Positions 25,127 to 62,571 of a stretch of DNA of 64,000 nucleotides are shown piece by piece. A model generated the notes under the pieces. The model searched no databases. It was not told the DNA's origin and worked only from the letters and a program-made list of their open reading frames with translations. The first letter of the stretch is position 1; each line of letters opens with the position of its first letter. The position numbers and the translations under genes were made by a program. This DNA is from Nitrosopumilus sp. (lineage in GTDB: Archaea > Thermoproteota > Nitrososphaeria > Nitrososphaerales > Nitrosopumilaceae): assembly GCA_965204345.1 (NCBI GenBank), contig OZ241981.1, positions 1,856,001 to 1,920,000 on the forward strand, in the 5' to 3' direction.

Positions 25127-25933
25127 ATGGCAGCTGCTAAAAAGCAAACAAAAAAAGATCTTGAAGACAAGATTGCCAAATTAGAAGCAAAGATAAACCA
25201 ACTTTCTACTCAGCTAGCCTCAAAGCCGGCAGAGACTCCAAAACCTGCCGCCAAGGCAAAGCCAGCTGAAAGGCCTGCTGCAACAACCAAGCCAAAGGGC
25301 ACACTGCCCAAAGGAATGGATGCAAAGCCTGCTGAGACAAAGCCTGCTGAAAGGCCCGCTGCAACAACCAAGCCAAAGGGCACACTGCCCAAAGGATTTG
25401 AAGCAAAGCCAGCTGAGGCAAAGCCAGCTGAGGCAAAGCCTGCTGAGGCAAAGCCAGCTGAAAGACCTGCTGCAACAACCAAGCCAAAGGGCACACTGCC
25501 CAAAGGATTTGAAGCAAAGCCAGCAGATGTCCCAAAGCCGGCTGAAACAACAACGTCACAGCCACCTGCAACTGTGCAAGAAGCACTAGAGGATGCATAC
25601 ATGACTGCCCCGACATCTGACTTTCATCAGTACAGGGCCAAAGTCACAGGTTATTCACCAGCTCCCAACAGATACTTTGTGAGACTGACTGCTCCTGTGG
25701 GCAAGGTTCCAACCACAAATTGGAATCTCCAAAAATCTAAAGTGACCGGCTATACTGCATGCTCAAACCAGTACTATGCAACAAGGGCAAGACTTGCATA
25801 TCATCCTGCCGATAAAACATTTGGAAGTTTTAGCGGGATCAACATGAGCGTTGAGGGAATCAAGGCACAGCAAGCTCCTCCGACACCAGAGCCACCAAAG
25901 CCCAAAAGAGGCACACTACCAAAAGGTTTCTAA
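25127..25933 (+). CDS. Pro/Lys/Ala-rich low-complexity protein, paralogue A
   Basis: N-terminal coiled coil, AKPAE and KGTLPKG repeats, two KVTGY repeats. Core nearly identical to 33111-34181. Confidence 0.85.
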   Translation: MAAAKKQTKKDLEDKIAKLEAKINQLSTQLASKPAETPKPAAKAKPAERPAATTKPKGTLPKGMDAKPAETKPAERPAATTKPKGTLPKGFEAKPAEAKPAEAKPAEAKPAERPAATTKPKGTLPKGFEAKPADVPKPAETTTSQPPATVQEALEDAYMTAPTSDFHQYRAKVTGYSPAPNRYFVRLTAPVGKVPTTNWNLQKSKVTGYTACSNQYYATRARLAYHPADKTFGSFSGINMSVEGIKAQQAPPTPEPPKPKRGTLPKGF

Positions 25934-26394: not shown

Positions 26395-26506
26395 TTTGTA
26401 GCACAAACCCTTTGAGCTATACTTGAGACTGCAAGCTCACAGTGTTTGTAGCACAAACCCTTTGAGCTATACTTGAGACTGCAAGCTCACAGTGTTTGTA
26501 GCACAA
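26395..26506. repeat. 50-bp perfect tandem duplication (2.2 copies) just beyond the integrase 3' end
   Basis: Unit TTTGTAGCACAAACCCTTTGAGCTATACTTGAGACTGCAAGCTCACAGTG at 26395 and 26445, plus a 12-bp third start at 26495. Confidence 0.95.
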
Positions 26507-26555: not shown

Positions 26556-28247
26556 TCACACCTTCTCTGTACCTGACTCGTAGATTCTCTTAAGCTTGGA
26601 ACCGCACGCAGGACACTTTTGCCTGTCATGAACCGTGCTGCATGAAATACAGCAAAATTCCACAGACTTTGCAATGTTTCCCGAGCTTTTTCCAGACAGC
26701 TCGTCAATCTGTCTTTGCATTTGACGTAGCATCTCAGACTGTCTTTCTCTAAACATATCCTCTCTTTTCTTTATTGCAAGCTCAGTTAGAAGATCCTCCT
26801 TGAGCCTTCCAATCTCTGAGATTTTTTCCCTTAACTCTAGCTTTAGCTCGTCTGCATCATCCTTTCCGGATGTTACGCTTGTAAACTTTGTAAATAGGTT
26901 TAATCTCTGGGATGCCTTTGCATACTCTTTTCGCAGGGTCTCTGGGTATAGCTTTGCCTGCTTTCCATACGAGTCCTTTGGCTTGTGGCCAATGACATGG
27001 TCTGCAACGTCTATTCTGCATCCAGAGTCAATCAGTGTGGATTTTAGTAAATCCCTTAGATCATGCGAGTCCATCCTGTATTGTTTTCTGCCGTTTGTCT
27101 CCACAAATTTTTGAACTCCTGATCTTTGTGCAATTCTTGAGAATTTTGTAAACACCCATCTAGGTGAAATTGGCTTTTGAAACTTGGTTAGAAACAGCGG
27201 CTGGTCGTCTTGCATGCTGTTTCCTGTCTTTTCCTTTCTAAAATCAAGGTATTTCTGCAATATGTCTACTGCATCCCTCTCCAGAAATCCGACATGCTTG
27301 TAGTCTGTCTTTATCCGAGTTAATGTTATTGGGACTGGACATTTCTCCAGATCCCACGAATCGTGGTTCTCAGAGCCAAACCACTTTGCCATCTGCGGCC
27401 ATGCCTCATAGTTGAACCTGTCAACCAGAGTAGAGACATCTAGTCCCCTGTGAAACTTGCACAGAAACACGGCGTGTTCTGTAATTGATGGCTTTCCAAT
27501 AGTTAAAAACTTCATTAGATCTGAGATGGTCATGTCCTGCTCCTCTAGTTCGGTGCTATGTGATGTCTTTGGATTGTAGTTGACCTGCAGTAGATATTCG
27601 TTTTTTTCAAAATATGACACTATGGCACTCTTTATCAAATTCATGTATGTTGCCTTTTTGTGCGAATGCATCTCATCGAGAAGATACTGCTTTATGATTC
27701 TTGTTACGTTCTTTTGATCGGCAAAAGGCTGTTCTAAAAGTTTTAGCAGTGATTCCACATTCTCAAATTTCTTTTGTTCTGTCTTTTGTACAAATGTGTT
27801 ATCACTGGTAGTCTGAAGCATATTTATCGCAAAGGCCTTTTCGGATATCCATCTGTTAAACTTCCATAGATGATGCAGGTACTGCAATTGTGTGCTATTG
27901 ATACTGGTACTGATTTTGTTCTGGTTTTTGAATTTGCTTCCGCGGAGCTGTGATGTCCAAAAGGACACGGTATCCAGACTTTTGAACCATTGAGGAATTG
28001 TGGCATTATTTGTCCTTTGGATCTTTTTTGATTCGCATGCCACTTTTAGTGCATGTGTAATATCGTTGATGACATACCGGTCATTTTTAAATCCAAGAAT
28101 GTCCTTATGCTTGGAGAAAAGTGATTTTACAGTTACTGTATCACCCACCTCCAACTCTGATAGTATGGGTCTTAGCTTCTTACTGATTCCAACAACATTT
28201 TTGTCAATTTTTGAAACAACAATGTATTCGTATTGGATCTTTGACAT
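26556..28247 (-). CDS. Tyrosine recombinase/integrase with C-terminal coiled coil and Zn ribbon
   Basis: RIKT (Lys), SHDLRD (HxLR), VIGHKPKDSY (GH...Y), terminal CISC...CPACG. Confidence 0.85.
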   Translation of the reverse strand: MSKIQYEYIVVSKIDKNVVGISKKLRPILSELEVGDTVTVKSLFSKHKDILGFKNDRYVINDITHALKVACESKKIQRTNNATIPQWFKSLDTVSFWTSQLRGSKFKNQNKISTSINSTQLQYLHHLWKFNRWISEKAFAINMLQTTSDNTFVQKTEQKKFENVESLLKLLEQPFADQKNVTRIIKQYLLDEMHSHKKATYMNLIKSAIVSYFEKNEYLLQVNYNPKTSHSTELEEQDMTISDLMKFLTIGKPSITEHAVFLCKFHRGLDVSTLVDRFNYEAWPQMAKWFGSENHDSWDLEKCPVPITLTRIKTDYKHVGFLERDAVDILQKYLDFRKEKTGNSMQDDQPLFLTKFQKPISPRWVFTKFSRIAQRSGVQKFVETNGRKQYRMDSHDLRDLLKSTLIDSGCRIDVADHVIGHKPKDSYGKQAKLYPETLRKEYAKASQRLNLFTKFTSVTSGKDDADELKLELREKISEIGRLKEDLLTELAIKKREDMFRERQSEMLRQMQRQIDELSGKSSGNIAKSVEFCCISCSTVHDRQKCPACGSKLKRIYESGTEKV

Positions 28248-28276: not shown

Positions 28277-28672
28277 ATATATTGTAAACAGATAACTAAT
28301 GTAACATTTACAAAAAAGCAGCATACCATAACTGATGATATTACAACCTTTGAGTTTTGCTCTCCTTGGATTGCACTCAACCAGTCAAACTATGCAAAAT
28401 ACAACAATCTAGACAAGACATTTCGCAAAAAATTCCTTGAGCGTATACTTACTGCCAATCTGCTTAGCGCACTAAAGGGCCTTGGTTGCATGATTGACTA
28501 TGATCTGTATGTAAAGATAAAGTGGTTCAAGCACATGCCAGTTACGGCGCATGAGCATGGCTTTTCTGGTTTTTATGGAGCCTTTGTAGCTAATCTGTCA
28601 TTACCACAATATCTAGGCATAGGCAAAAGTGTCTCAAAAGGATTTGGCATACTAGAAAAAACACAACAATGA
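28277..28672 (+). pseudogene. cas6: 5'-truncated Cas6 (Cas6b, type I-B-like)
   Basis: Open frame without a start codon reads FEFCSPWIALNQSNY...RILTANLLSALKGLG...LPQYLGIGKSVSKGFG (Gly-rich loop). The N-terminal part is missing, with a stop at 28274-28276. Confidence 0.85.
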
Positions 28673-28718: not shown

Positions 28719-28826
28719 GTTTTGATCCTTATTATTTAGAGTTCTATCTATAGTTGATATGTGGGATTCACAATCGTACCATGAGATAAAGTTTCAATCC
28801 TTATTGTTTTAGAAATCCATTAAGAG
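28719..28826 (-). CRISPR. Degenerate CRISPR mini-array (2 repeats, 1 spacer)
   Basis: 28791-28826 GTTTCAATCCTTATTGTTTTAGAAATCCATTAAGAG differs at ~5/36 positions from the array repeat. 28719-28753 is more degenerate. Period is 72 bp, as in the main array. Confidence 0.75.
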
Positions 28827-30279: not shown

Positions 30280-30669
30280 GTTTCAATCTTTATAATTTTA
30301 GAATTCTATTCAAACAAGGGATGGATATGCCATTAGGATGAGTATGATAGAGTCTCAATCTTTATAATTTTAGAATTCTATTCAGTATGGAATAAATTGG
30401 ATGTAACAATGGATACAAAGTCTCAATCTTTATTATTTTAGAATTCTATTCAGACTTAGGTGTCCATGTTGCAGTAATATGTTACGAACGTTTCAATCTT
30501 TATTATTTTAGAATTCTATTCAGTTGAAAACTATGACATTAGCAAGGGTGGCATAGAAAACGTTTCAATCTTTATAATTTTAGAATTCCCCCACAGCATC
30601 AACTGTGTGACCATATGCAATGGCATAGAAAACGTTTCAATCTTTATAATTTTAGAATTCTATTCAGAG
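30280..30669 (-). CRISPR. CRISPR array, 6 repeats / 5 spacers
   Basis: Repeats start (+) at 30280, 30352, 30420, 30490, 30562, 30634. Core is GTTTCAATCTTTATAATTTTAGAATTCTATTCAG. The minus strand ends in the ATTGAAAC handle; leader and cas4 lie to the right. Confidence 0.97.
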
Positions 30670-30746
30670 CCTCACTTTTTCCTGCATTTGCATAATCAAG
30701 GACATATTTTAACTGTTTTTTCCTGCACGTGACAATTATCTGAAAA
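30670..30746 (-). promoter_or_regulatory. CRISPR leader with two TGCAGGAAAAA motifs
   Basis: Between the cas4 stop and the first repeat. TTTTTCCTGCA at 30676-30686 and 30717-30727. Confidence 0.7.
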
Positions 30747-31334
30747 TTATTGAGCGCTATTTAATGAGCCGACATCGCATACCTTGCGATAGCAGCAATC
30801 ATGGCACTTGCTGCCATAACTGGCATCAGGTATCAGGCCATCACCAATTACCTGCCGGGTCTGCTCTAGCATTTCCAAGGCAAACTTGCGCATCTTCTCA
30901 TCAATGTTTACCGTAACCTGCTTTCTGGTATTGTTGCTTGCATATATTAAAATCCCTACCTTTACGGGTTTGCCAAATGTCTCCTCTAAAGCAACTGCAA
31001 GCAATCCGAGCTGAACCCTTACTGTGTCATAAATTTTTACATATTTTGAGTACTTTCTCTCCACTATGATTATCTGGCTGTCAGTTATTATGGCGTGGTC
31101 TACAATGCCTACAAAGTCATGCTTTGATGAGTACATCTTGAGTGAAGTAACCTTTTTTCCGTCTAAATTTTTTGGAATATAGTCTCTGTTTATTGCCTCT
31201 GATGTCTTGTGATATTTTTTGCCAGCAGATACTGCCCCCCGTTTCTGCTCATACTGTGCAAGACCTGCAACTGTCTCAAAGTATGTAAATCTGTGACAAA
31301 AGACATATTCGACTACCATAGTTATATTGATCAT
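30747..31334 (-). CDS. cas4: CRISPR-associated Cas4
   Basis: YVFCHR, GIVD, VERK, C-terminal KCHDCCYRKVC Fe-S ligands; follows cas2. Confidence 0.93.
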   Translation of the reverse strand: MINITMVVEYVFCHRFTYFETVAGLAQYEQKRGAVSAGKKYHKTSEAINRDYIPKNLDGKKVTSLKMYSSKHDFVGIVDHAIITDSQIIIVERKYSKYVKIYDTVRVQLGLLAVALEETFGKPVKVGILIYASNNTRKQVTVNIDEKMRKFALEMLEQTRQVIGDGLIPDASYGSKCHDCCYRKVCDVGSLNSAQ

Positions 31335-31634
31335 TTAAAACACCATTGATGGCCTGTTGCCTGTTACATACTCTGCATCAAAGTCCCTTCCCAAGGTTAT
31401 GACCTTGCCAAAGCACTGGCTGCAGCTGGCAATTAGGTAAAAAGAGTCCTCCTCCTCGTTTATGACCGCCTTTATCTTCTCTAGCAGATCTGTTTTTTGC
31501 TGGTTGTTCATAATGCCACAAAAAACACTCTTTTGGATTCTGGTAAATCCCGCATCCTTTAAGATTTGGATGGTTGATTGGCGGGTGCTATCATCTACAA
31601 TATCGTATATTGCATAGTAAATCATCCTGCTCAT
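31335..31634 (-). CDS. cas2: CRISPR-associated Cas2
   Basis: YAIYDIVDD, GFTRIQKSVFCG, DSFYL; ATGA overlap with the cas1 stop. Confidence 0.95.
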   Translation of the reverse strand: MSRMIYYAIYDIVDDSTRQSTIQILKDAGFTRIQKSVFCGIMNNQQKTDLLEKIKAVINEEEDSFYLIASCSQCFGKVITLGRDFDAEYVTGNRPSMVF

Positions 31635-32701
31635 GATGCTGCTGCCCTGTCCAGTCTTAGCAAGTCTGCTGTCATATCCTTGCAGTACTTCCACACTGTC
31701 TTTTCCACTATTTTTTGGCAGTCTTGCTTATAGGATGAGATCAGACTGGTCCTGCCAGTCTTGCTTAGTTGCATGGATGCAGTTACTGTCAAATCTTTTG
31801 AAAACCACCCATCATTTACAATTTTTCTATTAAACAGTGATAGCAATACCCTGTCAATTACCGGTCTGCACGGCTCTATCAGGTCATAGGCAAGTGTCGG
31901 TTTGCCATAATGGTCCTTGTGATAGAATCCTGAATTGGGATCCAGTCCGCAGAGAATTATCACCTTCTCCACACTAGAGTATGTCAGGCCATACATGTAG
32001 TTTAGTGCCACGTTGAATTCATCGAGTCCCGGATTCTGCGTTCTTTTTTTAAACTGCCATTTCTTGGCAAGGCATGCAGATATCATCTGAAAGTATAATG
32101 TGGCACAGCTGCCTTCATGCCCTAGAAACTGCTGTGCGTAGTGCTTTTGGTACGGTTTTATTTTTATGACAATTATAGATGAAGATTATATGAGGTCTTA
32201 TTGTAGTGCGTAGTGCTTTTGGTACGGTTTTATTTTTATGACAGTCTCTGTGTCTGCAATAAACGATGCTGCATCGTGCAGCTTTGTTCTTAGCTGCTCT
32301 TGCTTTCTGTTTTGCCTTAAGGTTGTGAGGACCTGCCTCTGCTTTGATAGTTTTTCTGATAACAGCTTTTTTGTTAGACTGAATGCAAATTTTGTATCTG
32401 CATTTAGGTACTGTTGCCGCCTTATCTGAGTCTGGCGTCCAAGTGCACTTGACCAGATGCGTGCCAAGGGCTTGCCGGACCAGGATGTAATTACTAGCTG
32501 TATCTGCCTTTCTATGCACAGTCTGATTGCAGACGTGCTGATCATTGCATTTGAGCTGACCAGTATCGTGTCTGTCTTTTTAGCTGGAATTTCCGCGTCC
32601 TTTTGGTCCGGTGTTTTTATTACAAATCGCTCACGCCTTCTGTGTATGCTAGAGCCATGCGTGGTCAGTTCAATTATCATTTGTCTTGATCTTTGAGACA
32701 C
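31631..32701 (-). pseudogene. cas1: Cas1 interrupted by a 72-bp in-frame insertion carrying stop codons
   Basis: Both halves are in the same frame. Removing 72 bp gives a 332-aa Cas1 with LGHEGSCATLYF, NVALNYMY, GLDPNSGFYH and LAYDLIEPCR intact. Confidence 0.95.
32134..32243. repeat. 38-bp direct duplication flanking 34 unique bp (repeat-spacer-repeat geometry) inside cas1
   Basis: GTGCGTAGTGCTTTTGGTACGGTTTTATTTTTATGACA at 32134-32171 and 32206-32243; insert ATTATAGATGAAGATTATATGAGGTCTTATTGTA. Confidence 0.97.
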
Positions 32702-33110: not shown

Positions 33111-34181
33111 ATGGCAACAAAAAGCAAGGCAACAAAAAAAGATCTAGAGACAAAAATTGCTGAATTGGAGGCAAAGTTAAGCAAATTATCAACACAACTT
33201 AAAGCCAAACCAAAACCTGCTGAAACCAAACCTGCTGAAACCAAACCTGCTGAAACCAAACCTGCTGAAACCAAACCAGGTAAAGCAAAGCCGGCAGAAG
33301 CCAAACCCGCTGAAAGACCTGCTGCTGCAACAACCAAGCCAAAGGGCACACTGCCCAAAGGATTTGAAGCAAAGCCGGCAGAAGCCAAACCGGCAGAAGC
33401 CAAACCGGCAGAAGCCAAACCCGCTGAAAGACCTGCTGCTGCAACAACCAAGCCAAAGGGCACACTACCCAAAGGATTTGAAGCAAAGCCAGCAGATGTC
33501 CCAAAGCCGGCTGAAACAACAACGTCACAGCCACCTGCAACTGTGCAAGAAGCACTAGAGAATGCATACATGACTGCCCCGACATCTGACTTTCATCAGT
33601 ACAGAGCCAAAGTCACAGGTTACTCACCAGCTCCCAACAGATACTTTGTGAGACTGACTGCTCCTGTGGGAAAGGTTCCAACCACAAATTGGAATCTCCA
33701 AAAATCTAAAGTGACCGGCTATACTGCATGCTCAAACCAGTACTATGCAACAAGGGCAAGACTTGCATATCATCCTGCCGATAAAACATTTGGAAGTTTT
33801 AGCGGGATCAACATGAGCGTTGAGGGAATCAAGGCACAGCAAGCTCCTCCGACACCAGAGCCACCAAAGCCTGCAAAGGGAAAGCTCCCAAAAGGCATGG
33901 AACAGGCACAGCAAACTCCACCACCACAGCAACAACAGCAGTCCGCATATGGCGGTGATGCAAAGTCTAGAGAAGAAAAACTCGCAGACTATGAGGCAGA
34001 ATACTTGCAAAGAATAGAACAGCAAAAAATAGATGATGAGAAGGCCTACCAAGAACTGCTTGAATCCGAAGCAAAGGCTAGGCAAACAGCTAGTAGGGGT
34101 ACTTTGCCAAAAGGCTTTGAACCAAAACCAGAACCCAAGACACCAAAAGAGTCTAGGGGAACACTGCCAAAAGGTTTCTAA
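33111..34181 (+). CDS. Pro/Lys/Ala-rich low-complexity protein, paralogue B (longer C-terminus)
   Basis: Same core as 25127-25933; 15-bp KPAET/KPAEA repeats; extra acidic helix. Confidence 0.85.
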   Translation: MATKSKATKKDLETKIAELEAKLSKLSTQLKAKPKPAETKPAETKPAETKPAETKPGKAKPAEAKPAERPAAATTKPKGTLPKGFEAKPAEAKPAEAKPAEAKPAERPAAATTKPKGTLPKGFEAKPADVPKPAETTTSQPPATVQEALENAYMTAPTSDFHQYRAKVTGYSPAPNRYFVRLTAPVGKVPTTNWNLQKSKVTGYTACSNQYYATRARLAYHPADKTFGSFSGINMSVEGIKAQQAPPTPEPPKPAKGKLPKGMEQAQQTPPPQQQQQSAYGGDAKSREEKLADYEAEYLQRIEQQKIDDEKAYQELLESEAKARQTASRGTLPKGFEPKPEPKTPKESRGTLPKGF

Positions 34182-38657: not shown

Positions 38658-41600
38658 ATGATCCCGCTGCTAGTGGGAGGGGGAACTCTGATATCATCTG
38701 CACCCCCTGCATTTGCCCAGTCTATATCCATTGACGATGTCACCATTGCCGAGGGTGAATCTCTTTCGCATCCGATAACACTCTCTGGTTTCGGACCCAC
38801 TCCTGATATCTTTCTCTCATCTATTGTGGGTTCAGATTCTTCGATTCCTCTGTCCATATCTCAAGGTGGAATAATCACCGCTGACATATCTTTTGATGTA
38901 GTGGCTCATCCCTCAACTGGCACTGACATAAGAACAAACTTTGACCTCTCTAATGACATTCAGATACGCATAGGTGTAGATGGTAGTGGTGCTTTTAGGA
39001 CTAGTGCTTTTACACTGACTGTCACAGATGTCAACCGTATTCCTGCAGGAACTGCACCTAGTTTTTCATTGAATATTGGTGAGACACACACAGGCAACCT
39101 AGCTAGCAACATTGCAGATCCGGACGGTGATACCCTGTCCTATACCCTGACTAACAATGCATGCCAGTCATCTAGCGTAACTGTAAATCCGACGGGTGCC
39201 TTTACCGTTACTGCAACAAATAACAACGCGGTGACATATCCTGAAGACTGTAGCTTTACCTTTGAAGTGACAGACGGCTCTGCAACAGAGCAGTTTACAT
39301 CCTCATACCGTGTGTTATCTACTGTATCCAACTCCCTGCCACCAATACCTGCCTCCGTACCATCTGCAACAGTCGAATATCCAAACCTAACTGTTCCTCA
39401 AATTTCACTGCGTGATCACTTTGTGGATCCCGAATTTGACACGCTGTCTTTCAATAATTTCTCAAGCTGCGCTGCTGGTGTCACCTTGGATGTTACACTG
39501 GTAAACGCCACTATTATGCAAATTAATCCCGTCGCAAGTGATGTCGGCACTACATGTGTGGTATCCTTTGACATCTCAGACGGCACGACGCAAAGCACGG
39601 GACAGCCATATTCTTTTGAGCTGGTAATCACAGAAAACCCCGCACCCGTACGTACTGCAACACCGCTGGTAATTGATGTTCCAGCAGACCAGCCTCAGAC
39701 ATCTACAATTAACATTAACGATTATTACACAGATGACAAGCCACTATCAATAAATTCTGTCACCTCTGATGACTGTTCATTTAGACAGGTCATCGTGGAT
39801 GTTGGGATAATCGAGTTTACGCTTCTCGCTAATGATCCCGAGGGGGTAACATGCACAGTAGAGATGGATGTCTCTGATGGAAACCGATCGATAACTGCAA
39901 CGCTCACAATAAACCATCTGGAACGTGCAACCGCATCTCTGAATACAGATGCAAGTGATCCGACCAACCTTGAGGCCATACCATATACGGTAACATTTGG
40001 CAGAGATGTCACAGGTTTTGAGCTGGATGATATTATTGTGCGTCATGATGATGTCATCATCAGATCTGGCCTGATAACTTCCATTGCGGGAGAGGGAGAC
40101 GAATACACCTTTACAGTCACACACAGCTTCACAGAAGGACTGCTAGTAGTAATCGTATCTCAAGATGCAGTTGTTGGCGGCAATGATTCTGCTGTATCTC
40201 GTATTACGGTGGACAGGATAAAGCCAACAGTATCCATTGCACCTGTCGATGGTACCACCACAGGTGATGACCCGGTAACGTTTACTGCAACATTTAGCGA
40301 GGACGTTAGAAACTTTGTGCTAGGTGACATTACAGTATCTGGTACCGCAAACGACGGCAGTCCAGTAGCATCCAACCTTCTTGGAACAGGAAGTGTATAC
40401 ACATTTGATGTTGCTCGAGGCTCTACAGACGGAACCGTAATTGCCTCAATTGCAGCAGACGTAGCAGAAGATCTTGCAGGCAACCTCAATGAGGCATCTG
40501 CTCCGGTCACTGCCACCATATACACTGTTCCGGTGCCAACTATCACCTCCGTCAGGGGTCTCATTGATAGCACTGATCCGTCTGAAACATTTAGAGTAAC
40601 ATTTAGCAACCCTGTCACAGACTTTGTTGCCGATGACATTCTCATAACTGGTACCGCAAACGGCGGCAATCCTGAAATATCAAACTTTGCAGGTTCCGGA
40701 GATACGTACACCTTTGATGTCGCAGGTGGGGTCTCAGATGGAAGCGTAATAATATCCATACCTGCAGGCGTTGCAGTACATCACTTATCAGGTGCAGACA
40801 ATGCGGCATCTGCTCAGTTTGACTTTCTCTTTCTCTTTTTTGGCCCAACCACTACCATTAGTACGACTGCCGATCCCCTGACTCCTCTTCATACAGTACC
40901 ATTTATCGTGACATTCAGTCAGGATGTCTTCCCTCTTACCCTAAGTGACATTACAGTAACTGGTACCGCAAACGGCGGCAACCCGGTTGCATCAAACCTT
41001 CAGATACTTAATTCCCGTACAACTAGCGATGGTGAAACTGTTGCCCCGAGATTTAGCTTTGATGTTGTCCGCGGATCCTCAGACGGAACCGTAACTGTAT
41101 CCATACCTGCAGCCGCGGCAACAAGTAGTAATTTTGATTCCAATATTGCATCCAACGAGATCACCGTCACAATAGACACCACCATACTGCCACCGGTTCC
41201 TGCAGTAGCGCCAGTCATAAACCTAGAGCACCCTGTGCTAGACCCACACCAAGAGTTCTCACTTGATGACCACTTTACAGATCCTCAAGGTGATACGCTA
41301 TCGTACACCAATATATCAGATGACTGTACTGGAACCCTGACGCAGCAGTCACCAGCTGGCTCTGATACGTTCAGGTTTGTATCCTCTGCTGCTGAGACAT
41401 GTACGCTCTCCTTTGACATCTCTGATGGTACTGGTGCCAGCACAGGCGGTGCATACACTGTAAACATATCTGTGGTATTGGATGCCGCACCAGTACGTAC
41501 TGCAACACCCCTGACAGTTGATGTCCTATCAAGCCAGCCCAGAAAGGTTACACTTGACATTAACAATTATTACACAGATACCCAGACACTGACACTAGTC

Positions 41601-44600
41601 TCTGCCCCCACATCTAGTGACTGTACGGACTTTGTCTCTACCATCCTGTCAAACGGACAGTTTGACTTTGAGCCTATCAATGCTTTTGCCAGTGCATCAA
41701 CATGTACAGTACAGGCAACTTTCTCTGATGGAAACAGGCATACAACTGCAGAGCTTACAATAAACTATCTGGATGCTGCAACCGTATCCCTAGATACAGA
41801 TGTAACTGATCCTACCAACTCTGAGGCCATACAATTTACGGCAACATTTGGCAGTGACGTCACAGGATTTATCGCAGATGACATTGTAGTGACAATTGAT
41901 GGAAACCCCGCCACACCTGGCAGCCTGATATCTGCATTTAGTGGAAGCGGTGCTGACTATGCCTTTACAGTAACACACGGCATCACCGCAGAAGGACAGC
42001 TAACAGTTACCATACCTGCCAATGCGGTAGCAGAGGGTAACACAGCAAGTACTGTCACTACATTCACAGTGGACAGAATAGTCCCAACTGTAACCATCAC
42101 ACCTGCCGATGGCACTACCACCAGCGATGACCCAGTAACGTTTACGGCAACATTTAGCGAGGACGTTGTGAACTTTGAGATAGGTGACATTACAGTAACT
42201 GGCACTGCCAATGCCACCAATCCTGTAGCATCCAACCTTCTTGGAACAGGCAGTGTCTACACCTTTGATGTTGCTCGCGGCACCACAGACGGAACCGTAA
42301 CTGCATCAATAGATGCAGGTGTACTAGCAGACCTTGCAGGCAATCTTAACACTGCATCTAATTCAGTTACAGTTACCATAACTACCAACACACTGCCACC
42401 GGTTCCTGCTGTAACACCTGGCATAACCCTACAGCACCCAGTACTGGCCGCACACCAAGAGTTCTCACTTGATGACCACTTTACAGATCCCGAAGGTGAT
42501 ACGCTATCATACACCAATCCATCAGATGACTGTACTGGAACCCTGACGCAGCAGCCACCAGCTGGCTCTGATACGTTCAGGTTTGTATCCTCTGATGCTG
42601 AGACATGTACGCTCTCCTTTGACATCTCTGATGGCACTATTGCCAGCACTGGCAGTGCCTACACTGTAAACATATCTGTGGTATTGGATGCCGCACCAGT
42701 ACGTACTGCAACACCGCTGACAGTTGATGTACCTGTAGACCAGCCCCGAAAGGTTACACTTGACATTAACAATTATTACACCGATGACGGCACACTGACA
42801 CTAGTCTCTGCCCCCACATCTAGTGACTGTACGGACTTTGTCTCTACCATCCTGTCAAACGGACAGTTTGACTTTGAACCTATCAATGCTTTTGCTAGTG
42901 CATCAACATGTACAGTACAGGCAACCTTCTCTGATGGAAACAGGCACACAGATACAGAGATTACAATAAACTATCTTAGCCTTCCAACCGTAACTGTTGC
43001 AGAGGGTGAATCTCTTTCACATCAGGTATCATTACCTGCTAACTTTTTCCCCGCTGATGTCGGTCTCATAAGCACCGGTCATCGTTATCTAAGCATAAAT
43101 TTGGATGGACTAGTCACAGGCAACATACCTTTTGATGTAGTGACTCATCCCCCAACTGGCACCAGCATAAGGGATGACTTTGACCTCTCTACTGAAATCC
43201 AGGTAGAATATCAACTAGATGATGGTGCTGATATCATTACTGGGTCATTTACACTGACTGTCACAGATGTCAACCGTGTTCCTGCTGGAACTGTACCACC
43301 TAGTTTTTCATTTAATATTGATGAGACACACACAGGCAACCTAGCTACCAACATTGCAGATCCGGACGGTGATACCCTGTCCTATACCCTAGATAACAAT
43401 GCATGCCAGTCATCTAGCGTGACTGTAAATCCGACGGGTGCCTTTACCGTTACTGCAACGCCAAACAACGCGGTGACATATCCTGAAGACTGTAGCTTTA
43501 CCTTTGATGTGACAGACGGCTCTGCAACAGAACAGTTTACATCCTCATACCGTGTGTTATCTACCGTAACTAACCTACTGCCACCAATACCTGCCTCCGT
43601 ACCATCTGCAACAGTCGAATATCCAAGCATAACAGATCCGCAAATTTCACTGCGTGACCACTTTGAGGATCCCGAATTTGACACGCTGTCTTTCAATAAT
43701 TTCTCAAGCTGCGCTGCTGGTGTCACCTTGGATGTTACACTGCTAGACAATCATAACATGCAAATTGCTCCCTTCGCACGTGATGTCGGCACTACATGTG
43801 TGGTATCCTTTGACATCTCAGACGGCACGACGCAAAGCACGGGGCAGCCATACTCTTTTGAGCTGGTAGTCACAGAAAATCCCGCACCCGTACGAACTGC
43901 AACGCCTCTGGTAATTGACGTCCTATCAGACCAGTCTAGGACAGTTACAATTGACATTAACGACTATTACACAGATGACAAGTCACTGTCAATATTTAGT
44001 ACTATAACCTCTGATGACTGTACATTTAGATCTACCTCACCAGACAGTGGCGTGTTTACATTTGAGGCCATAGAAGACTCTACTGGCGGGCTAACATGCA
44101 CAGTACAGACAACCTTCTCTGATGGAAACTACCTTACACCTGTAGCGTTTACAATAAACTATCTGGATCGTACATCCGTATCTCTGACTACGGATGTAGG
44201 CGATCTCACCAACCTTGAGGCCATACCATATACGGTAACATTTGGCAGAGCTGTCACAGGATTTGATCAGGATGATATTATAGTGCGTATTGATGAAACC
44301 ACCACCACACCTGGCCTGATAACTTCCTTTGCGGGAGAGGGAGCCCAATACACCTTTACAGTCACACACGGCCTCACAGAAAGCCTGCTAGTAGTAGTCA
44401 TACCTGCTGATGCAGCTGATGGTGGCAGTGCTAGTGATATATCTCGTATTACGGTGGACAGGGCAAACCCCACAGTATCCATTACGCCTGCCGATGGCAC
44501 CATCACTAGTGATGACCCAGTAACATTTACTGCAACATTTAGCGAGGATGTCCAGAACTTTATCCTATCTGACATTACAGTAACAGGCACCGCAAACGGC

Positions 44601-47600
44601 ACCAATCCGGCAGCAGCCAACTTTGTAACAGTTGATGCCCGCACATACACCTTTGATGTTGCTCGCGGAACCTCAGACGGAACCGTAACTGCATCCATAG
44701 CAGCAGATGTAGCAACAGACCTTGCAGGCAACCTCAACGCCGCATCTGCCCCGGTTACCGTCACCATAGACACCACTGTCCCATCAGTATCCCTGGACAC
44801 AACTGCTGCTGATACTACCAACTCTGAGGCCATCGAATTTACTGCAACATTTGACAGGGATGTCACACAATTCGTCCAAGAGGACATTGTCGTGGCAATT
44901 AACGGAACCGACACATCTGGCCTGATATCTGCATTTAGTGGAAGCGGTGCTGACTATGCCTTTACAGTAACACACGGCATCGCCACACAAGGTGAACTAG
45001 CAGTAACAATACCTGACGGTGTGGTAGCAGAGGGCAACACGGCAAGTACTCATACACTTACCGTGGACAGAATAAGACCATCAGTATCCATTACACCTGC
45101 CGATGGTACCACCACCAGTGATAACTCAGTAACATTTACTGCAACATTTAGCGAGGACGTCGAAGACTTTGAACTAACTGACATTACAGTAACGGGCACT
45201 GCAAACGGTGGTGTTCCGGCAGCAGCCAACTTTGTAACAGTTGATGCCAGCACATACACCTTTGATGTGGCTCGAGGCTCTACAGACGGAACCGTAATTC
45301 CATCCATTGCAGCAGACATAGCAACAGACCTTGCAGGCAACCTCAACACTGCATCTAATTCAGTTACAGTTACCATAACTACCAACACACTGCCACCAGT
45401 TCCTGCTGTAACACCGGGCATAACCCTACAGCATCCTGTATTGGCTGCACACCAAGAGTTCTCACTTGATGCCCACTTTACAGATCCCGAAGGTGATACG
45501 CTATCATACACCAACATATCAGATGACTGTACTGGAACCCTGACGCAGCAGCCACCAGCTGGCTCTGATACGTTCAGGTTTGTATCCTCAACTGCTGAGA
45601 CATGTACGCTCTCCTTTGACATCTCTGATGGCACTGATGCCAGCACTGGTGCTGCCTACACTGTAAACATATCTGTGGTATTGGATGCCGCACCAGTACG
45701 TACTGCAACACCGCTGACAGTTGATGTCCTATCAAGCCAGCCCAGAAAGGTTACACTTGACATTAACAATTATTACACAGATGACGGCACACTGACACTA
45801 GTCTCTGCCCCCACATCTAGTGACTGTACGGACTTTACCTCTACCATCCTGTCAAACGGACAGTTTGACTTTGAGCCTATCAATGCTTTTGCTGGTGCAT
45901 CAACATGTACAGTACAGGCAACCTTCTCTGATGGAAACAGGCATACGACTGCAGAGCTTACAATAAACTATCTGGATGCTGCAACCGTATCCCTAGATAC
46001 AGATGTAACTGATCCTACCAACTCTGAGGCCATACAATTTACGGCAACATTTGGCAGTGACGTCACAGGATTTATCGCAGATGACATTGTAGTGACAATT
46101 GACGGAAACCCCGCCACACCTGGCAGCCTGATATCTGCCTTTAATGGAAGCGGTGCTGACTATACCTTTACAGTAACACACGGCATCACCGCAGAAGGAC
46201 AGCTAACAGTAACCATACCTGCCAATGCGGTCGTAGAGGGTAACACAGCAAGTGCTACGACTACACTCACAGTAGACAGAATAGTCCCAACTGTAACTAT
46301 CACACCTGCCGATGGTACTACCACTGGCGATGACCCAGTAACGTTTACGGCAACATTTAGCGAGGACGTCGAGGACTTTGAACTAACTGACATTACAGTA
46401 ACTGGTACCGCAAACGGCGGCAGTCCTGAGGCATCCAACCTTCTTGGAACAGGAAGTGTCTACACCTTTGATGTTGCTCGAGGCTCCACAGACGGAACCG
46501 TAATTCCATCCATTGCAGCAGACGTAGCAACAGATCTTGCAGGCAACTCCAACACCGCATCTGCCCCAGTTACTGTCACAATAGACACCGTTCCCCTAAC
46601 AGTCTCTGTGACTACAACTGTAGGAGAGAACACCAACTCTGATACGGTAACATTTACGGCAACATTTAGCAAGGACGTTGAGGACTTTATCCTTACTGAC
46701 ATTACAGTAACTGGTACCGCAAACGGCGGCAGTCCCGCAGCATCCAACCTTCTTGGAACAGGAAGTGTCTACACCTTTGATGTTGCTCGAGGCTCCACAG
46801 ACGGAACCGTAATTCCATCCATTGCAGCAGACGTAGCAACAGACCTTGCAGGCAACCCCAACACCGCATCTGCCCCAGTTACTGTCATAATAGACACTCT
46901 TGCCCCAACTGTCTCTGTCAGTTCATCTACAGGCAGTAGCACCGGACTTGATACGGTACCATTTAGAGTAACATTTGACGAAGACGTTGAGAACTTTGTC
47001 CTAGATGACATTACAGTAGCTGGTACCGCAAACGGCGGCACCCTCACAGCATCCGGCTTTGCAACAGTTGATGCCCGCACATACACCTTTAACGTTGCAG
47101 GCATATCTTCTGACGGAACAGTAATTGCATCCATTGCAGCAGATGTGGCAACAGACCTTGCAGGCAACCCCAACACCGCATCTGCTCCAGTTACCGTCAC
47201 CGTAGACACCACTGTCCCATCAGTATTCTTGGACACAACTGCTACTGATCCTACCAACTCTGATACCGTCAACTTTACTGCAACATTTGACGAGGATGTC
47301 ACAGGATTTGTGCAATCTGACATCGTTGTAGCAATTGACGGAACCCCAGCAGCTAATAGCCTGATAACTGCCTTTAGTGGGAGCGGTGCTGACTATACCT
47401 TTACAGTAACACACGGCATCGCCGCAGAAGGACAGCTGACAGTAACCATACCTGACGATGCGGTAGTAGAGGGCAACACAGCAAATACTCGTACACTTAC
47501 AGTGGACAGAATAGATCCAACTGTAACCATCACACCTGTCGATGGTACTATCACTGGCGATGACCCCGTAACCTTTACGGCAACCTTTAGTGAGGATGTT

Positions 47601-50600
47601 GAGAACTTTGTCCTAGCTGACATTACAGTAACTGGTACTGTCAACGGCGGCAGTCCAGTAGCATCCAACCTTCTTGGAGACGGCAGTGTCTACACCTTTG
47701 ATGTTGCTCGCGGCTCGACAGACGGAACCGTAACCGTATCAATTGCAGGAGATGTGGCAAGAGATCTTGCAGACAATCCCAACACTGCATCTAATTCAGT
47801 TACCATAACTATTACAACACTGCCTCCGGTTCCTGCGGTATCGCCTGGCATAACCCTGCAGCATCCTGTATTAGACCCACACCAAGAGTTCTCACTTGAT
47901 GACCACTTTACAGATCCTAATGGTGATACGCTATCATACACCAACATATCAGATGACTGTACTGGAACCCTGACGCAGCAGCCACCAGCTGGCTCTGATA
48001 CGTTCAGGTTTGTATCCTCAGATGCTGAGACATGTACGCTCTCCTTTGACATCTCTGATGGCACATATACCAGCACAGGCGGTGCATACACTGTAAACAT
48101 ATCTGTGGTATTGGATGCCGCACCAGTACGTACTGCAACACCGCTGACAGTTGATGTCCTATCAAGCCAGCCCAGAAAGGTTACACTTGACATTAACAAT
48201 TATTACACAGATACCCAGACACTGACACTAGTCTCTGCCCCCACATCTAGTGATTGTACGGACTTTACCTCTACCATCCTGTCAAACGGACAGTTTGACT
48301 TTGAGCCTATCAATGCTTTTGCCAGTGCATCAACATGTACAGTACAAGCAACTTTCTCTGATGGAAACAGGCATACAACAGCAGATCTTACAATAAACTA
48401 TCTGGATGCTGCAACCGTATCCCTAGATACGGATGTAACTGATCCTACCAACTCTGAGGCCATACCATTTACGGCAACATTTGGCAGTGACGTCACAGGA
48501 TTTATCGCAGATGACATTGTAGTGACAATTGATGGAAACTCCGCCACACCTGGCAGCCTGATAACTGCCTTTAGTGGAAGCGGTGCTGACTATGCCTTTA
48601 CAGTCACACACGGCATCGCCGCAGAAGGACAGCTAGCAGTAACCATACCTGCCAATGCGGTAGTAGAGGGTAACACAGCAAGTGCTACGACTACACTCAC
48701 AGTGGACAGAATAGATCCAACTGTAACTATCACACCTGCCGATGGTACTACCACTGGCGATGACCCAGTAACGTTTACGGCAACATTTAGCGAGGACGTT
48801 GAGAACTTTGAGCTAGCTGACATTACAGTAACTGGCACTGCCAATGGCGGCAGTCCAGTAGCATCCAACTTTGTAACCCTTGATGCCCGCACATACACCT
48901 TTGATGTTGCTCGCGGCACCACAGACGGAACCGTAATTGCGTCCATTGCAGCAGACGTAGCAACAGACCTTGCAGGCAACTCCAACACCGCATCTAATTC
49001 AGTTACCGTCACCGTAGACACCACTGTCTCATCAGTATCCCTGGACACAACTGCTGCTGATCCTACCAACTCTGAGGCCATCGAATTTACTGCAACATTT
49101 GACAGGGATGTCACACAATTCACCCTAGAGGACATTGTCGTGGCAATTAACGGAACTGACACATCTGGCCTGATATCTGCATTTAGTGGAAGCGGTGCTG
49201 ACTATGCCTTTACAGTAACACACGGCATCACCACACAAGGTGAACTAACAGTAACAATACCTGCCAATGCGGTCGTAGAGGGCAACACGGCAAGTACTCA
49301 TACACTTACCGTGGACAGAATAAGACCATCAGTATCCATTACACCTGCCGATGGTACCACCACCAGCGATAACTCAGTAACATTTACTGCAACCTTTAGT
49401 GAGGACGTCGAGGACTTTGAACTAGCTGACATTAGAGTAACTGGTACTGCCAATGGCACCAATCCAGTAGCATCCAACCTTCTTGGAACAGGAAATGTCT
49501 ACACCTTTGATGTTGCTCGAGGCACCACAGACGGAACCATAATTCCATCCATTGCAGCAGACGTAGCAACAGACCTTGCAGGTAACCTCAACACTGCATC
49601 TAATTTAGTTACAGTTACCATAACTACCAACACACTGCCACCAGTTCCTGCTGTAACACCGGGCATAACCCTACAGCATCCTGTACTGGCCGCACACCAA
49701 GAGTTTTCACTTGATGCCCACTTTACAGACCCCGAAGGTGATACGCTATCATACACCAACATATCAGATGACTGTACTGGAACCCTGACGCAGCAGCCAC
49801 CAGCTGGCTCTGATACGTTCAGGTTTGCATCCTCTGCTGCTGAGACATGTACGCTCTCCTTTGACATCTCTGATGGCACTGATGCCAGCACTGGTGCTGC
49901 CTACACTGTAAACATATCTGTGGTATTGGATGCCGCACCAGTACGTACTGCAACACCGCTGACAGTTGATGTCCTATCAAGCCAGCCCAGAAAGGTTACA
50001 CTTGACATTAACAATTATTACACAGATACCCAGACACTGACACTAGTCTCTGCTCCCACATCTAGTGACTGTACGGACTTTACCTCTACCATCCTGTCAA
50101 ACGGACAGTTTGACTTTGAGCCTATCAATGCTTTTGCCAGTGCATCAACATGTACAGTACAGGCAACCTTCTCTGATGGAAACAGGCATACAACAGCAGA
50201 TCTTACAATAAACTATCTGGATGCTGCAACCGTATCCCTAGATACGGATGTAACTGATCCTACCAACTCTGAGGCCATACCATTTACGGCAACATTTGGC
50301 AGTGACGTCACAGGATTTATCGCAGATGACATTGTAGTGACAATTGATGGAAACTCCGCCACACCTGGCAGCCTGATATCTACCTTTAGTGGAAGCGGTG
50401 CTGACTATGCCTTTACAGTCACACACGGCATCACCGCAGAAGGACAGCTAACAGTAACCATACCTACCAATGCGGTAGTAGAGGGTAACACAGCAAGTGC
50501 TACGACTACACTCACAGTAGACAGAATAGTCCCAACTGTAACTATCACACCTGCCGATGGTACTACCACTGGCGATGACCCAGTAACGTTTACGGCAACA

Positions 50601-53600
50601 TTTAGCGAGGACGTTGAGAACTTTGTTCTGGCTGACATTACAGTAGCAGGCACCGCAAACGGCGGCACTCCAACAGCATCCAACTTTGTAACCCTTGATG
50701 CCCGCACATACACCTTTGATGTTGCTCGCGGCACCACAGACGGAACCGTAATTGCGTCCATTGCAGCAGACGTAGCAACAGACCTTGCAGGCAACTCCAA
50801 CACCGCATCTAATTCAGTTACCGTCACCGTAGACACCACTGTCTCATCAGTATCCCTGGACACAACTGCTGCTGATCCTACCAACTCTGAGGCCATCGAA
50901 TTTACTGCAACATTTGACAGGGATGTCACACAATTCACCCTAGAGGACATTGTCGTGGCAATTAACGGAACTGACACATCTGGCCTGATATCTGCATTTA
51001 GTGGAAGCGGTGCTGACTATGCCTTTACAGTAACACACGGCATCACCACACAAGGTGAACTAACAGTAACAATACCTGCCAATGCGGTCGTAGAGGGCAA
51101 CACGGCAAGTACTCATACACTTACCGTGGACAGAATAAGACCATCAGTATCCATTACACCTGCCGATGGTACCACCACCAGCGATAACTCAGTAACATTT
51201 ACTGCAACCTTTAGTGAGGACGTCGAGGACTTTGAACTAGCTGACATTAGAGTAACTGGTACTGCCAATGGCACCAATCCAGTAGCATCCAACCTTCTTG
51301 GAACAGGAAATGTCTACACCTTTGATGTTGCTCGAGGCACCACAGACGGAACCATAATTCCATCCATTGCAGCAGACGTAGCAACAGACCTTGCAGGTAA
51401 CCTCAACACTGCATCTAATTTAGTTACAGTTACCATAACTACCAACACACTGCCACCAGTTCCTGCTGTAACACCGGGCATAACCCTACAGCATCCTGTA
51501 CTGGCCGCACACCAAGAGTTTTCACTTGATGCCCACTTTACAGACCCCGAAGGTGATACGCTATCATACACCAACATATCAGATGACTGTACTGGAACCC
51601 TGACGCAGCAGCCACCAGCTGGCTCTGATACGTTCAGGTTTGCATCCTCTGCTGCTGAGACATGTACGCTCTCCTTTGACATCTCTGATGGCACTGATGC
51701 CAGCACTGGTGCTGCCTACACTGTAAACATATCTGTGGTATTGGATGCCGCACCAGTACGTACTGCAACACCCCTGACAGTTGATGTCCTATCAAGCCAG
51801 CCCAGAAAGGTTACACTTGACATTAACAATTATTACACAGATACCCAGACACTGACACTAGTCTCTGCCCCCACATCTAGTGATTGTACGGACTTTACCT
51901 CTACCATCCTGTCAAACGGACAGTTTGACTTTGAGCCTATCAATGCTTTTGCCAGTGCATCAACATGTACAGTACAAGCAACTTTCTCTGATGGAAACAG
52001 GCATACAACAGCAGATCTTACAATAAACTATCTGGATGCTGCAACCGTATCCCTGAGTACTGATGTAACTGATCCTACCAACTCTGAGGCCATACCATTT
52101 ACGGCAACATTTGGCAGTGACGTCACAGGATTTATCGCAGATGACATTGTAGTGACAATTGATGGAAACTCCGCCACACCTGGCAGCCTGATAACTGCCT
52201 TTAGTGGAAGCGGTGCTGACTATGCCTTTACAGTCACACACGGCATCGCCGCAGAAGGACAGCTAGCAGTAACCATACCTGCCAATGCGGTAGTAGAGGG
52301 TAACACAGCAAGTGCTACGACTACACTCACAGTGGACAGAATAGATCCAACTGTAACTATCACACCTGCCGATGGTACTACCACTGGCGATGACCCAGTA
52401 ACGTTTACGGCAACATTTAGCGAGGACGTTGAGAACTTTGAGCTAGCTGACATTACAGTAACTGGCACTGCCAATGGCGGCAGTCCTGAGGCAACCAACC
52501 TTAATGGTGAAGGAAGTGTCTACACCTTTGATGTTGCTCGCGGCTCCACAGACGGAACCGTAACTCCATCCATTGCAGCAAATGTGGCAACAGACCTTGC
52601 AGGCAACTCCAACACCGCATCTGCCCCAGTTACTGTCACCGTAGACACCACTGTTCCATCAGTATCCCTGGACACAACTGCTGCTGATCCTACCAACTCT
52701 GAGGCCATCGAATTTACTGCAACATTTAACGAGGATGTCACAGGATTTATCGCAGATGACATTGTCGTGGCAATTAACGGAACTGACACATCTGGCCTGA
52801 TATCTGCATTTAGTGGAAGCGGTGCTGACTATGCCTTTACAGTAACACACGACATCACCACACAAGGCGAACTAACAGTAACAATACCTGACGGTGCTGT
52901 AGCAGAGGGCAACACGGCAAGTATTCATACACTCACAGTGGACAGAATAGATCCATCTGTAACTATTACACCAGCCGATGGTACCACCACCAGCGATAAC
53001 TCAGTAACATTTACTGCAACCTTTAGTGAGGACGTCGAGGACTTTGAACTAGCTGACATTACAGTAACTGGTACCGCAAACGGCGGCAATCCAGTGGCAG
53101 ACAACTTTGTAACAGTTGATGACCGCACATACACCTTTGATGTTGCTCGCGGTTCCTCAGACGGAACCGTATCTCCATCCATAGGAGCAAATGTGGCAAC
53201 AGACCTTGCAGGCAACTCCAACACCGCATCTGCCCCAGTTACCGTCACAATAGACACCATTGTCCCAACCGTATCCATTACACCTGCCGATGGCACCATC
53301 ACTGGTGATGACCCCGTAACCTTTACGGCAACCTTTAGCGAGGATGTCCAGAACTTTGTCCTAGCTGATATTACAATAACTGGTACTGCCAACGACGGCA
53401 ATCCAGCAGCAGCCAACTTTGTAACAGTTGATGACCGCACATACACCTTTGATGTTGCTCGCGGTTCCTCAGACGGAACCGTAACTTCATCCATAGCAGC
53501 AGACGTAGCAACAGACCTTGCAGGCAATTCCAACACCGCATCTGCCCCAGTTACCGTCACAATAGATACTACTGCCCTAACCGTATCCATTACACCTGCC

Positions 53601-62526: not shown

Positions 62527-62571
62527 GCATGAAACCTAAATACGTTCTTGCCCCTTGCAATATTGCGTCTG

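Follow-up and report, generated by a model that had tools for sequence, protein, structure and literature searches.

Probable off-target CRISPR integration into the cas1 integrase gene of a Nitrosopumilus genome that carries a series of similar insertions

The CRISPR adaptation integrase Cas1-Cas2 can insert spacers away from its own array. In Escherichia coli, such off-target integration gives rise to neo-CRISPRs (Nivala, Shipman & Church 2018, Nat Microbiol); those events are reported to have required overproduction of Cas1-Cas2 and the addition of oligonucleotides. Evidence for natural off-target integration has been called circumstantial in two other species. Further reports describe ectopic spacer acquisition inside type II-A arrays (McGinn & Marraffini; S. 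thermophilus CRISPR3), in vitro off-target and ruler work on P. furiosus Cas1-Cas2 (PMC6698737) and repeat motifs in Haloarcula hispanica (PMC4872114). Off-target integration has so far been a laboratory phenomenon, and its natural role, whether as a cost of adaptation or as an origin of arrays, is largely conjecture.

Here we analyze a stretch of 64,000 nucleotides from Nitrosopumilus sp. (contig OZ241981.1, positions 1,856,001 to 1,920,000 of the forward strand; hereafter the window), in which the genome's cas1 gene is interrupted by a short duplication and insert, and we compare this interruption with the systems above.

A decayed CRISPR locus and its interrupted cas1 gene

The CRISPR locus is flanked by housekeeping genes and consists of an array with an adaptation module, cas1 (now broken), cas2 and cas4, beside it (Table 1). 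Successive repeats of the array start 72, 68, 70, 72 and 72 nt apart, giving a modal period of 72 nt. We took the minus strand as the probable sense strand because the repeat ends ...ATTGAAAC there. Repeat 3, which the first-pass annotation had given as GTCTG...AC, actually reads GTCTC...CAGAC (36 nt) on the plus strand. In related arrays the repeats belong to the same GTTTCAATC family and are 36-37 nt long, with a modal period of 71-72. In public sequencing runs, other spacers are attached to the same repeats, and the assembled array looks collapsed when compared with these runs (loose ends at 30455-30490).

We found no complete type I-B system. Among the four Pfam families searched (DevR, RAMPs, Cas6_C and Cas3_HD), none gave an effector match, and only half of cas6b is left. 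The DevR, RAMP and Cas6_C profiles had no match in the genome; the sole weak Cas3_HD match was rejected as a cas3 candidate, being a generic HD protein beside the subtilase insertion described below, and no credible Cas3 was found. As judged by these four families, the CRISPR locus is decayed and without effector genes. The tyrosine recombinase gene that abuts the truncated cas6b may mark a rearrangement that removed them. Self-derived spacers would be harmless in a cell without interference.

Table 1. Features of the CRISPR locus and of the interrupted cas1 gene (window coordinates)
Feature	Position	Strand	Basis
Tyrosine recombinase gene, 563 aa, abuts truncated cas6b	26556..28247	-	Pfam Phage_integrase 2.3e-08
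cas6b remnant, C-terminal domain only	28277..28672	+	Pfam Cas6b_C 6.5e-36, positions 2-113 of 114; upstream stop closes frame
Degenerate solitary CRISPR repeat, 4 of 27 positions changed	28791..28817	.	Genome C1:1884791-1884817
CRISPR array, six repeats of ~34-37 nt (GTTTCAATC...TTCAG on + strand), five spacers	30280..30670	-	Repeat search
Out-of-register integration within array	30549..30660	.	40-nt perfect duplication around 32 nt, offset 72 nt; in all four runs compared
Presumed leader between cas4 and first repeat	30671..30746	-	Position; relatives' degenerate repeat at array's opposite end
cas4, open 195-aa ORF	30747..31334	-	Pfam Cas_Cas4 3.7e-16; TIGR00372
cas2, open 119-aa ORF	31335..31694	-	Pfam CRISPR_Cas2 3.2e-16; TIGR01573
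cas1, interrupted; genome's only Cas1-family gene	31631..32701	-	Pfam Cas1 profile, homologue alignment
Target-site duplication copy 1, 38 bp of cas1 coding sequence	32134..32171	.	Perfect repeat; foreign-context match in run X2 begins at 32171
Inserted spacer-like DNA, 34 nt (35 with 32171)	32172..32205	.	Genome-unique; two TAA in cas1 frame; loose ends at 32171 and 32205 in run X2
Target-site duplication copy 2	32206..32243	.	Perfect repeat; collapsed 38-nt unitig at depth 381 in run X10, about twice flanks

Comparison of the window with itself showed that the two 38-nt copies in cas1 are 100% identical, start 72 nt apart and enclose 34 nt of unique sequence. For a perfect 38-mer, chance is no issue. 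When up to six substitutions were allowed, the 38-mer was found at these two places only in the whole 2.12-Mb genome, and the insert occurred once; the insert is therefore neither a copy of adjacent DNA nor a multicopy element. These comparisons bear out the earlier description of a perfect 38-bp cas1 duplication around 34 foreign bp, and they speak against a copy of neighboring DNA or an IS or MITE footprint, two of the findings that had been named as able to overturn it. The duplication of 38 bp and the insert of 34-35 nt together span 72, the modal period of the array, as the first-pass annotation had pointed out. The last base of copy 1 (32171) may belong to the spacer, in which case the duplication is 37 bp and the insert 35 nt. 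Taken as 38 bp, the duplication exceeds the repeat (36-37 nt) by 1-2 nt.

Read through its two TAA codons, cas1 encodes a 356-aa protein with X at residues 168 and 172, which matches the Pfam Cas1 profile (PF01867) over positions 3-282 of 283 with 230.5 bits against a cut-off of 22.3 and is the sole match in the genome. The intact allele described below scores 226 bits with NCBIfam TIGR00287 (cut-off 71.7), and a Cas1 is also the closest match of the cas1 product among solved structures. Both stops lie between the two copies of the duplicated peptide VIKIKPYQKHYA, and removal of the 24 extra residues leaves 332 aa, precisely the protein that excision of the insert had been predicted to restore. 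In an alignment of 25 sequences (the window Cas1 and 24 homologues), E196, H261, D273 and E276, which we take to be the catalytic residues, are invariant, and the inserted columns are empty in 24 of 24 homologues; the survey of cas1 homologues that had been suggested for this site thus found the extra residues in none of them. The two in-frame TAA codons have been added just before the catalytic Glu. The N-terminal ORF (32198-32701), which matches positions 3-145 of the Pfam Cas_Cas1 profile, ends before this residue, and the C-terminal ORF (31631-32086), which matches positions 167-282, begins after it. Because neither ORF has the full set of conserved residues, the predicted knock-out of cas1, already proposed in the first-pass annotation, is secure.

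Alleles with and without the insertion, and the source of the insert

Thirteen public runs from four studies contain the stretch or part of it, and four of these (X1, X2, X4 and X10) were compared. All runs were compared as 31-mer contigs, which do not phase across the 38-nt repeat, so that allele shares reflect depth only. Run X1 has a 2523-nt contig in which 32133 is followed immediately by 32206, with precisely the 72 bp missing. Run X10, possibly the source of the assembly, contains a 94-nt unitig (32142-32235) that passes through copy 1, the insert and copy 2 at a depth of 182, compared with 194-200 in the flanks; the collapsed 38-mer has a depth of 381. Run X2, from another study, has the same junctions as X10, with insert unitigs at a depth of 91-92 and flanks at 206-256, which suggests from depth alone a mixed population of both alleles with the insertion at about 40% of flank depth. 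The depth share of the insertion allele is hence nil in X1, about 40% in X2 and about 92% in X10. Cover of run X4 is missing from 32097 to 32502, and this run is thus uninformative at the cas1 site.

Protein records agree with these contigs. P0002 (Logan, 2523-nt contig) and P0091 (ENA, 38,220-nt contig) are 325-aa Cas1 proteins without the 24 residues. Apart from a single 24-residue gap, P0002 agrees with the read-through protein in all but one of 325 aligned residues (324 identical), and P0091 has one difference more. The empty target site is therefore present in the X1 contig, P0002 and P0091, the insertion in X2 and X10, and the search for alleles with and without the 72 bp that had been proposed as a check found both in public data. 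The insertion is real and polymorphic. At position 32581, X1, X2 and X4 have C where the window has T. Because of this C, the intact cas1 alleles look ancestral rather than revertant, and the Lys codon of the window looks like a later change.

The insert could be placed in a second context in run X2 only, where contigs share 32171-32205 with the window but differ from it on both sides over more than 250 nt. The 35-nt insert thus also sits in a foreign context in X2, a candidate protospacer, both flanks of which presumably belong to one molecule. One forward frame, read by hand, is open through all 95 nt examined of this foreign context. Exact scans for the 34-mer gave no match in viral, metagenome or genome contig collections, two 30-letter flanks from X2 had no match in viral contigs, and blastn of the insert against phage records returned chance-level hits only (best E = 0.4). 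The search of virus, mobile-element and self sequences that had been recommended for the insert was accordingly successful in part: it produced the foreign context in X2 and no second genomic copy, but the viral and phage searches gave no donor. No shared PAM could be made out, either with the array spacers or among the six visible protospacer contexts, which have no trinucleotide in common when compared with the orientation of each event not fixed.

A genome-wide series of similar insertions

A scan of the whole genome for exact direct repeats (minimum length 25 nt, offsets 26-300) yielded 516 raw hits, of which 72 were isolated. Of the latter, 30 were at offsets of 69-75, 14 of them at exactly 72. 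A mismatch-tolerant scan (at least 29 of 32) placed 42 of 62 isolated repeats with offsets of 40-110 at offsets of 66-78. Curation started from 33 rows at offsets of 64-80; removal of nine with duplications below 31 nt and four that merely copy an event within larger duplicated regions left 20 clean events, and the genome scan at 68-74-bp offsets proposed in the first-pass annotation thus turned up a whole series. These 20 events have duplications of 31-42 nt, inserts of 30-38 nt and offsets of 69-75. The duplication is 38 nt long in eight events, 36 in four, 35 in three, and 31, 33, 37, 39 and 42 in one each. Roughly eight more sites, whose duplications are shorter or contain mismatches, have the look of older events.

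No two of the 20 events have the same insert, and each insert is single-copy except for those that copy a chromosomal source. When 28 inserts were tested, four could be traced to a second place in the chromosome, with 0-2 mismatches (37 nt with two mismatches, 33 nt with two, 35 nt with one and 39 nt exact); the remaining ones were unique or matched only copies of their own event. One of the five array spacers has a source in its own chromosome. The out-of-register unit in the array can be counted as a twenty-first event: its 40-nt duplication is composed of 13 nt of an older spacer and 27 nt of repeat, and 37 nt of the unit (30585-30621) are an exact copy of C1:1209414-1209450 in the same chromosome. 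The in-array event predates the cas1 hit, because it is present in all four runs, X1 included. In a scan for the pattern A-X-A-Y-A, the true array alone had X and Y that differed; the off-target sites are all singletons, and none has grown into an array.

Aligned at the boundaries of their duplications, the 20 events share a target-site motif. Of their 40 half-sites, 25 have G at -3, three bases beyond the edge of the duplication (P = 2.9e-9), and 23 have T at +2, its second base; enrichment of A is seen at +4, +6 and +7. GT or CT opens the duplication in 16 of 40 half-sites against a background of 0.106 (P = 1.3e-6). The site preference read from these chromosomal scars is G-S-Y/S-T-N-A, the slash marking the boundary, with the two half-sites about 36-38 bp apart. 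The repeat of this CRISPR family starts with GT on one strand and, in the window, with CT or GT on the other, and the leader-repeat junction of a relative (..GGCT/GTCG) fits the half-site motif. At the cas1 site, the plus side (GCT/GT) fits the motif and the minus side does so only with a one-base shift; the register of the genome's own repeat is uncertain. Over their whole length, targets resemble the 36-nt repeat consensus little (13-15 identities for cas1, 12-17 for the others), and the signal is at the ends only.

We looked for similar sites in related genomes. Cas1 matches are present in 52 of 121 genomes of the genus; at the DNA level, three of 61 genomes match (the genome itself, G000, included) with 66-80% identity, and there is no near-identical cas1 among them. 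One 400-kb sample from each of five relatives was scanned. G140, which has a related cas1, a 37-nt repeat and a modal period of 72, had four clean events with duplications of 32-37 nt and offsets of 67-73, and three looser ones. G014, with a related cas1, had three events (37-39 nt, offsets 73-74). G088, with a related array, had no event in its 400-kb sample. Of the two genomes lacking a Cas1 match, G002 had one marginal event (30 of 42 at offset 72) and G018 none in samples of the same size. Equal-sized pieces of the Nitrosopumilus sp. genome contained seven and nine events. The motif recurred in the 16 half-sites from G140 and G014, with C at -1 in 11, T at +2 in 10 and GT or CT first in eight. 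These samples are small, and the similar sites in related genomes are suggestive support for the pattern.

The events are not spread evenly over the genome. Once the insert was removed, eight of 20 lay in an open frame of at least 100 codons, compared with 2508 of 3000 random windows (83.6%; P = 1.3e-5). Selection thus appears to have filtered the events, which are depleted in coding DNA. Three long genes carry an insertion that is in frame and open, namely those for a subtilase, a D12 DNA methyltransferase and an SNF2/PLD helicase. The subtilase P0094 and its related allele P0136 differ by a single 24-residue gap, P0136 being the one that lacks the residues, making this the second event with an empty-site allele; exact look-ups for empty-site alleles of three other interrupted ORFs gave no informative allele. 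One event lies at the 3' end of tRNA-Ser(CGA), where the duplication preserves the whole tRNA. cas1 is among the few genes actually broken by events. For 20-28 retained events, the chance of a random hit on cas1 is about 1%. The closeness of the array, 1.5 kb away, and selection against an integrase that causes mutations could each plausibly lie behind the hit on cas1.

Origin of the cas1 insertion and comparison with known systems

We consider it highly probable that the cas1 insertion is an off-target integration by the genome's own Cas1-Cas2, perhaps with Cas4, at a non-repeat site. The build of the scar, the two alleles, the genome-wide series, the inserts of self origin and the cut-site motif are direct observations; the catalysis itself we infer. 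In this mechanism, Cas1-Cas2, encoded with Cas4, would have loaded a 34-35-nt prespacer from foreign DNA, and the integrase would have cut into its own gene on both strands, at points some 37 bp from each other. Repair of the gaps would then have duplicated the 37-38 bp between the cuts, just as the repeat is duplicated in normal spacer acquisition. With the two stops of the insert ahead of the catalytic Glu, the sole integrase gene is dead in this lineage. The cas1 event would be one of at least 20 misfires that were kept, the survivors lying in dispensable or tolerant places. To our knowledge, no reaction other than off-target integration by Cas1-Cas2 combines a repeat-length duplication, a spacer-length insert, a different insert at every site and a total equal to the array period. 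The proposal of a natural neo-CRISPR-type integration into cas1, made in the first-pass annotation, is therefore supported by the empty-site alleles, the foreign context in X2 and the 20-event series.

Other origins of the 72 bp fare less well. An artefact of assembly or polishing, such as array-like reads misplaced into cas1, might be suspected from the 38-nt repeat, which exceeds the 31-mers used for the contigs, and from the collapsed look of the assembled array, but we regard it as scarcely credible: the X10 unitig runs through copy 1, insert and copy 2 at nearly the depth of its flanks (182 compared with 194-200), the same junctions occur in X2 from a different study, and the two cas1 half-ORFs are recorded as separate proteins of a 2,038,535-bp contig. 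The 72 bp could be real and yet have arisen independently of Cas1, as a transposon or MITE footprint, by replication slippage with template switching, or as filler DNA at a repaired break. At C1:1947301 the insert and duplication overlap by 4 and 5 nt, possibly hinting at microhomology. Still, 20 unlike inserts that are single-copy save for self-copies rule against an element with fixed ends, the offset peak coincides with the array period, the inserts of 30-38 nt have the lengths of spacers, the cut-site motif appears to resemble the repeat ends, and the same build is found within the array; an origin without Cas1 is therefore very unlikely. The transposon, IS or MITE version in particular was rejected, with a single-copy insert, 20 unrelated inserts and duplications of 31-42 bp, and we know of no transposase that makes duplications of 35-38 bp. 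Casposons are common in the genus and produce duplications of about 14-15 bp, against 35-38 bp here. Insertion of short DNA by a casposase, a Cas1-like transposase, could draw on Cas1-family ORFs some 410-420 aa long that several genomes of the genus encode, and on published work on a casposase from this group; in this genome, the single Cas1-family match is the interrupted cas1 and there is no casposase, and we give this origin practically no credence.

A further reading, put forward in the first-pass annotation, accepts the same mechanism and holds that the cas1 hit is a self-limiting, reversible switch, in which recombination between the 38-bp repeats restores cas1. Excision would be exact, both alleles seem to coexist in X2 (insert at about 92, flanks at 206-256), off-target events look costly (8 of 20 in open frames, compared with 83.6%), so that stopping the integrase could be favored, and a random hit on cas1 has a chance of about 1% for 20-28 events. 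The mixture of alleles in X2 would fit ancestral polymorphism as well as reversion. Against a switch, there is no evidence of reversion among the alleles compared, where the intact ones with C at 32581 look ancestral; none of 24 homologues has an insertion at the site, and there is thus no sign of a recurrent, evolved target; and the locus had already decayed (cas6b truncated; DevR, RAMP, Cas6_C and a credible Cas3 not found), which points to loss rather than regulation. We therefore hold a switch to be unlikely. Returning to off-target integration as an accident of Cas1-Cas2, any selective benefit of the knock-out is something we infer with more reserve. It is a tentative idea, rather doubtful as it stands, that an integrase without interference acted as an endogenous mutagen, scattering spacers through the genome, and that the self-hit allele spread by stopping the damage. 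If this were true, a natural genome-editing enzyme would have ended its own activity, with the 38-bp repeats leaving a way back by precise deletion, and the same process would supply raw material for the birth of new CRISPR arrays.

This genome is a natural record of off-target integration: about 20 scars dated by divergence, a target motif, self and foreign sources, empty-site alleles and a pattern of survival, with events depleted in coding DNA, in frame in long genes and, in cas1, polymorphic among public samples. The specificity of the integrase in vivo, the cost of adaptation to the host and the reason for the loss of an adaptation module can now be counted, and the scan is applicable to any genome. 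In a literature search of full texts, with subscription journals and supplements outside its scope, we found no report of natural genome-wide events or of a cas1 so interrupted; within the same scope, an in vivo target motif, self-derived inserts and empty-site alleles were not found reported. The mechanism is known; what appears to be new is the scale at which it occurs in nature, together with a hit on the very gene that encodes the integrase.

The closest described system is the E. coli neo-CRISPR, which shares with the events described here a spacer-length insert, a repeat-length duplication, a non-repeat chromosomal site and the adaptation integrase. In contrast to those events, the present ones are natural and archaeal, fixed or polymorphic in the wild and at least 20 per genome; one of them breaks the integrase gene, and none has grown to a second spacer. 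Ectopic acquisition in type II-A systems is similar in that integration takes place away from the leader-proximal repeat, and in this broad sense the out-of-register unit at 30549-30660 is an event of that kind. The type II-A events use a genuine downstream repeat, however, whereas the in-array event here is shifted 13 nt into a spacer and the others lie outside arrays. As in the P. furiosus (PMC6698737) and Haloarcula hispanica (PMC4872114) studies, short elements at and near the cut sites and a fixed spacing of attack set the target, and it is the off-target sites that bring these elements to light; those sites come from test-tube or plasmid substrates, and ours from natural chromosome scars.

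Casposons, which measure kilobases, are bounded by terminal inverted repeats and give short duplications. They have in common with the insertions described here a Cas1-family integrase, staggered cuts and a target-site duplication.

Isolated sites with the cas1-like build across the genome

We found that nineteen more isolated sites share the build of the cas1 site in a scan of its own genome, all of them outside the window (Table). Each consists of a unique insert of 30-38 bp inside a perfect duplication of 31-42 bp, with offsets of 69-75. Three of these off-target events, which we read as stray integrations of spacer-like DNA by Cas1-Cas2, subsequently multiplied within larger duplications: one set of three direct copies at a spacing of 3598 bp, and two inverted pairs. 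The target of one event (C1:486377-486486) is the 3' end of tRNA-Ser(CGA), and the complete tRNA gene was kept thanks to the duplication. A tRNA-like target resembling this site (..GAGTCGAACCCCC..) was also struck in G014, a related genome.

Table. Off-target sites in the genome (C1, own-genome coordinates) and repeat-rich open reading frames in the window
Feature	Position	Strand	Remark
Off-target sites	C1:162808, 179899, 330574, 368743, 382764, 486377, 499885		
Off-target sites (continued, 2)	C1:500922, 718691, 801852, 1045502, 1064050, 1385280		
Off-target sites (continued, 3)	C1:1406775, 1419699, 1539958, 1546947, 1765720, 1947301		
6040-aa single open reading frame	window 38658-56780	+	repeat arrays inside
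Repeat-rich ORF	window 25127-25933	+	tandem repeats
Repeat-rich ORF	window 33111-34181	+	tandem repeats

Array content and the broken cas1 allele in public runs

The array repeats near window positions 30455-30490 and 30585-30621 have several differing continuations in public sequencing runs, seen as loose ends, and the depth of X10, a run with the cas1 insertion, is 16 at positions 30464-30554 against about 200. Compared with the assembly, the true array is likely to contain additional or different spacers. Within cas1, the window has T (Lys) at position 32581, where the two intact alleles in the database and three further runs have C (Glu); the T appears to be a later substitution in the already broken gene.

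Other repeats in the window

Positions 26395-26506, directly past the recombinase gene at its 3' end, hold 2.2 tandem copies of a 50-nt unit with 100% identity, and a shorter tandem of the unit's reverse complement lies about 157 kb away, at C1:1725516. An integrated element may have these tandems as its attachment sites. The 6040-aa ORF contains arrays of 309-312-nt repeats (46338-47210 and 52965-54836), and its product is probably a giant surface protein. Tandem repeats of 15 nt (KPAE-like) and of 81-114 nt abound in both shorter ORFs, which have repeat units in common.

CRISPR repeats and Cas1-family genes in the genus

A lone copy of the G088 CRISPR repeat, with 1 mismatch, was observed at position 62555-62590 of the 400-kb sample of that genome (L081-L100), far from its 158-repeat array. 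The genus survey also showed that many members carry several Cas1-family genes per genome, among them ORFs about 410-420 aa and 557-578 aa long, and that stop codons occur within a few other cas1 matches, such as G122:C5, G143:C32, and G111:C5.
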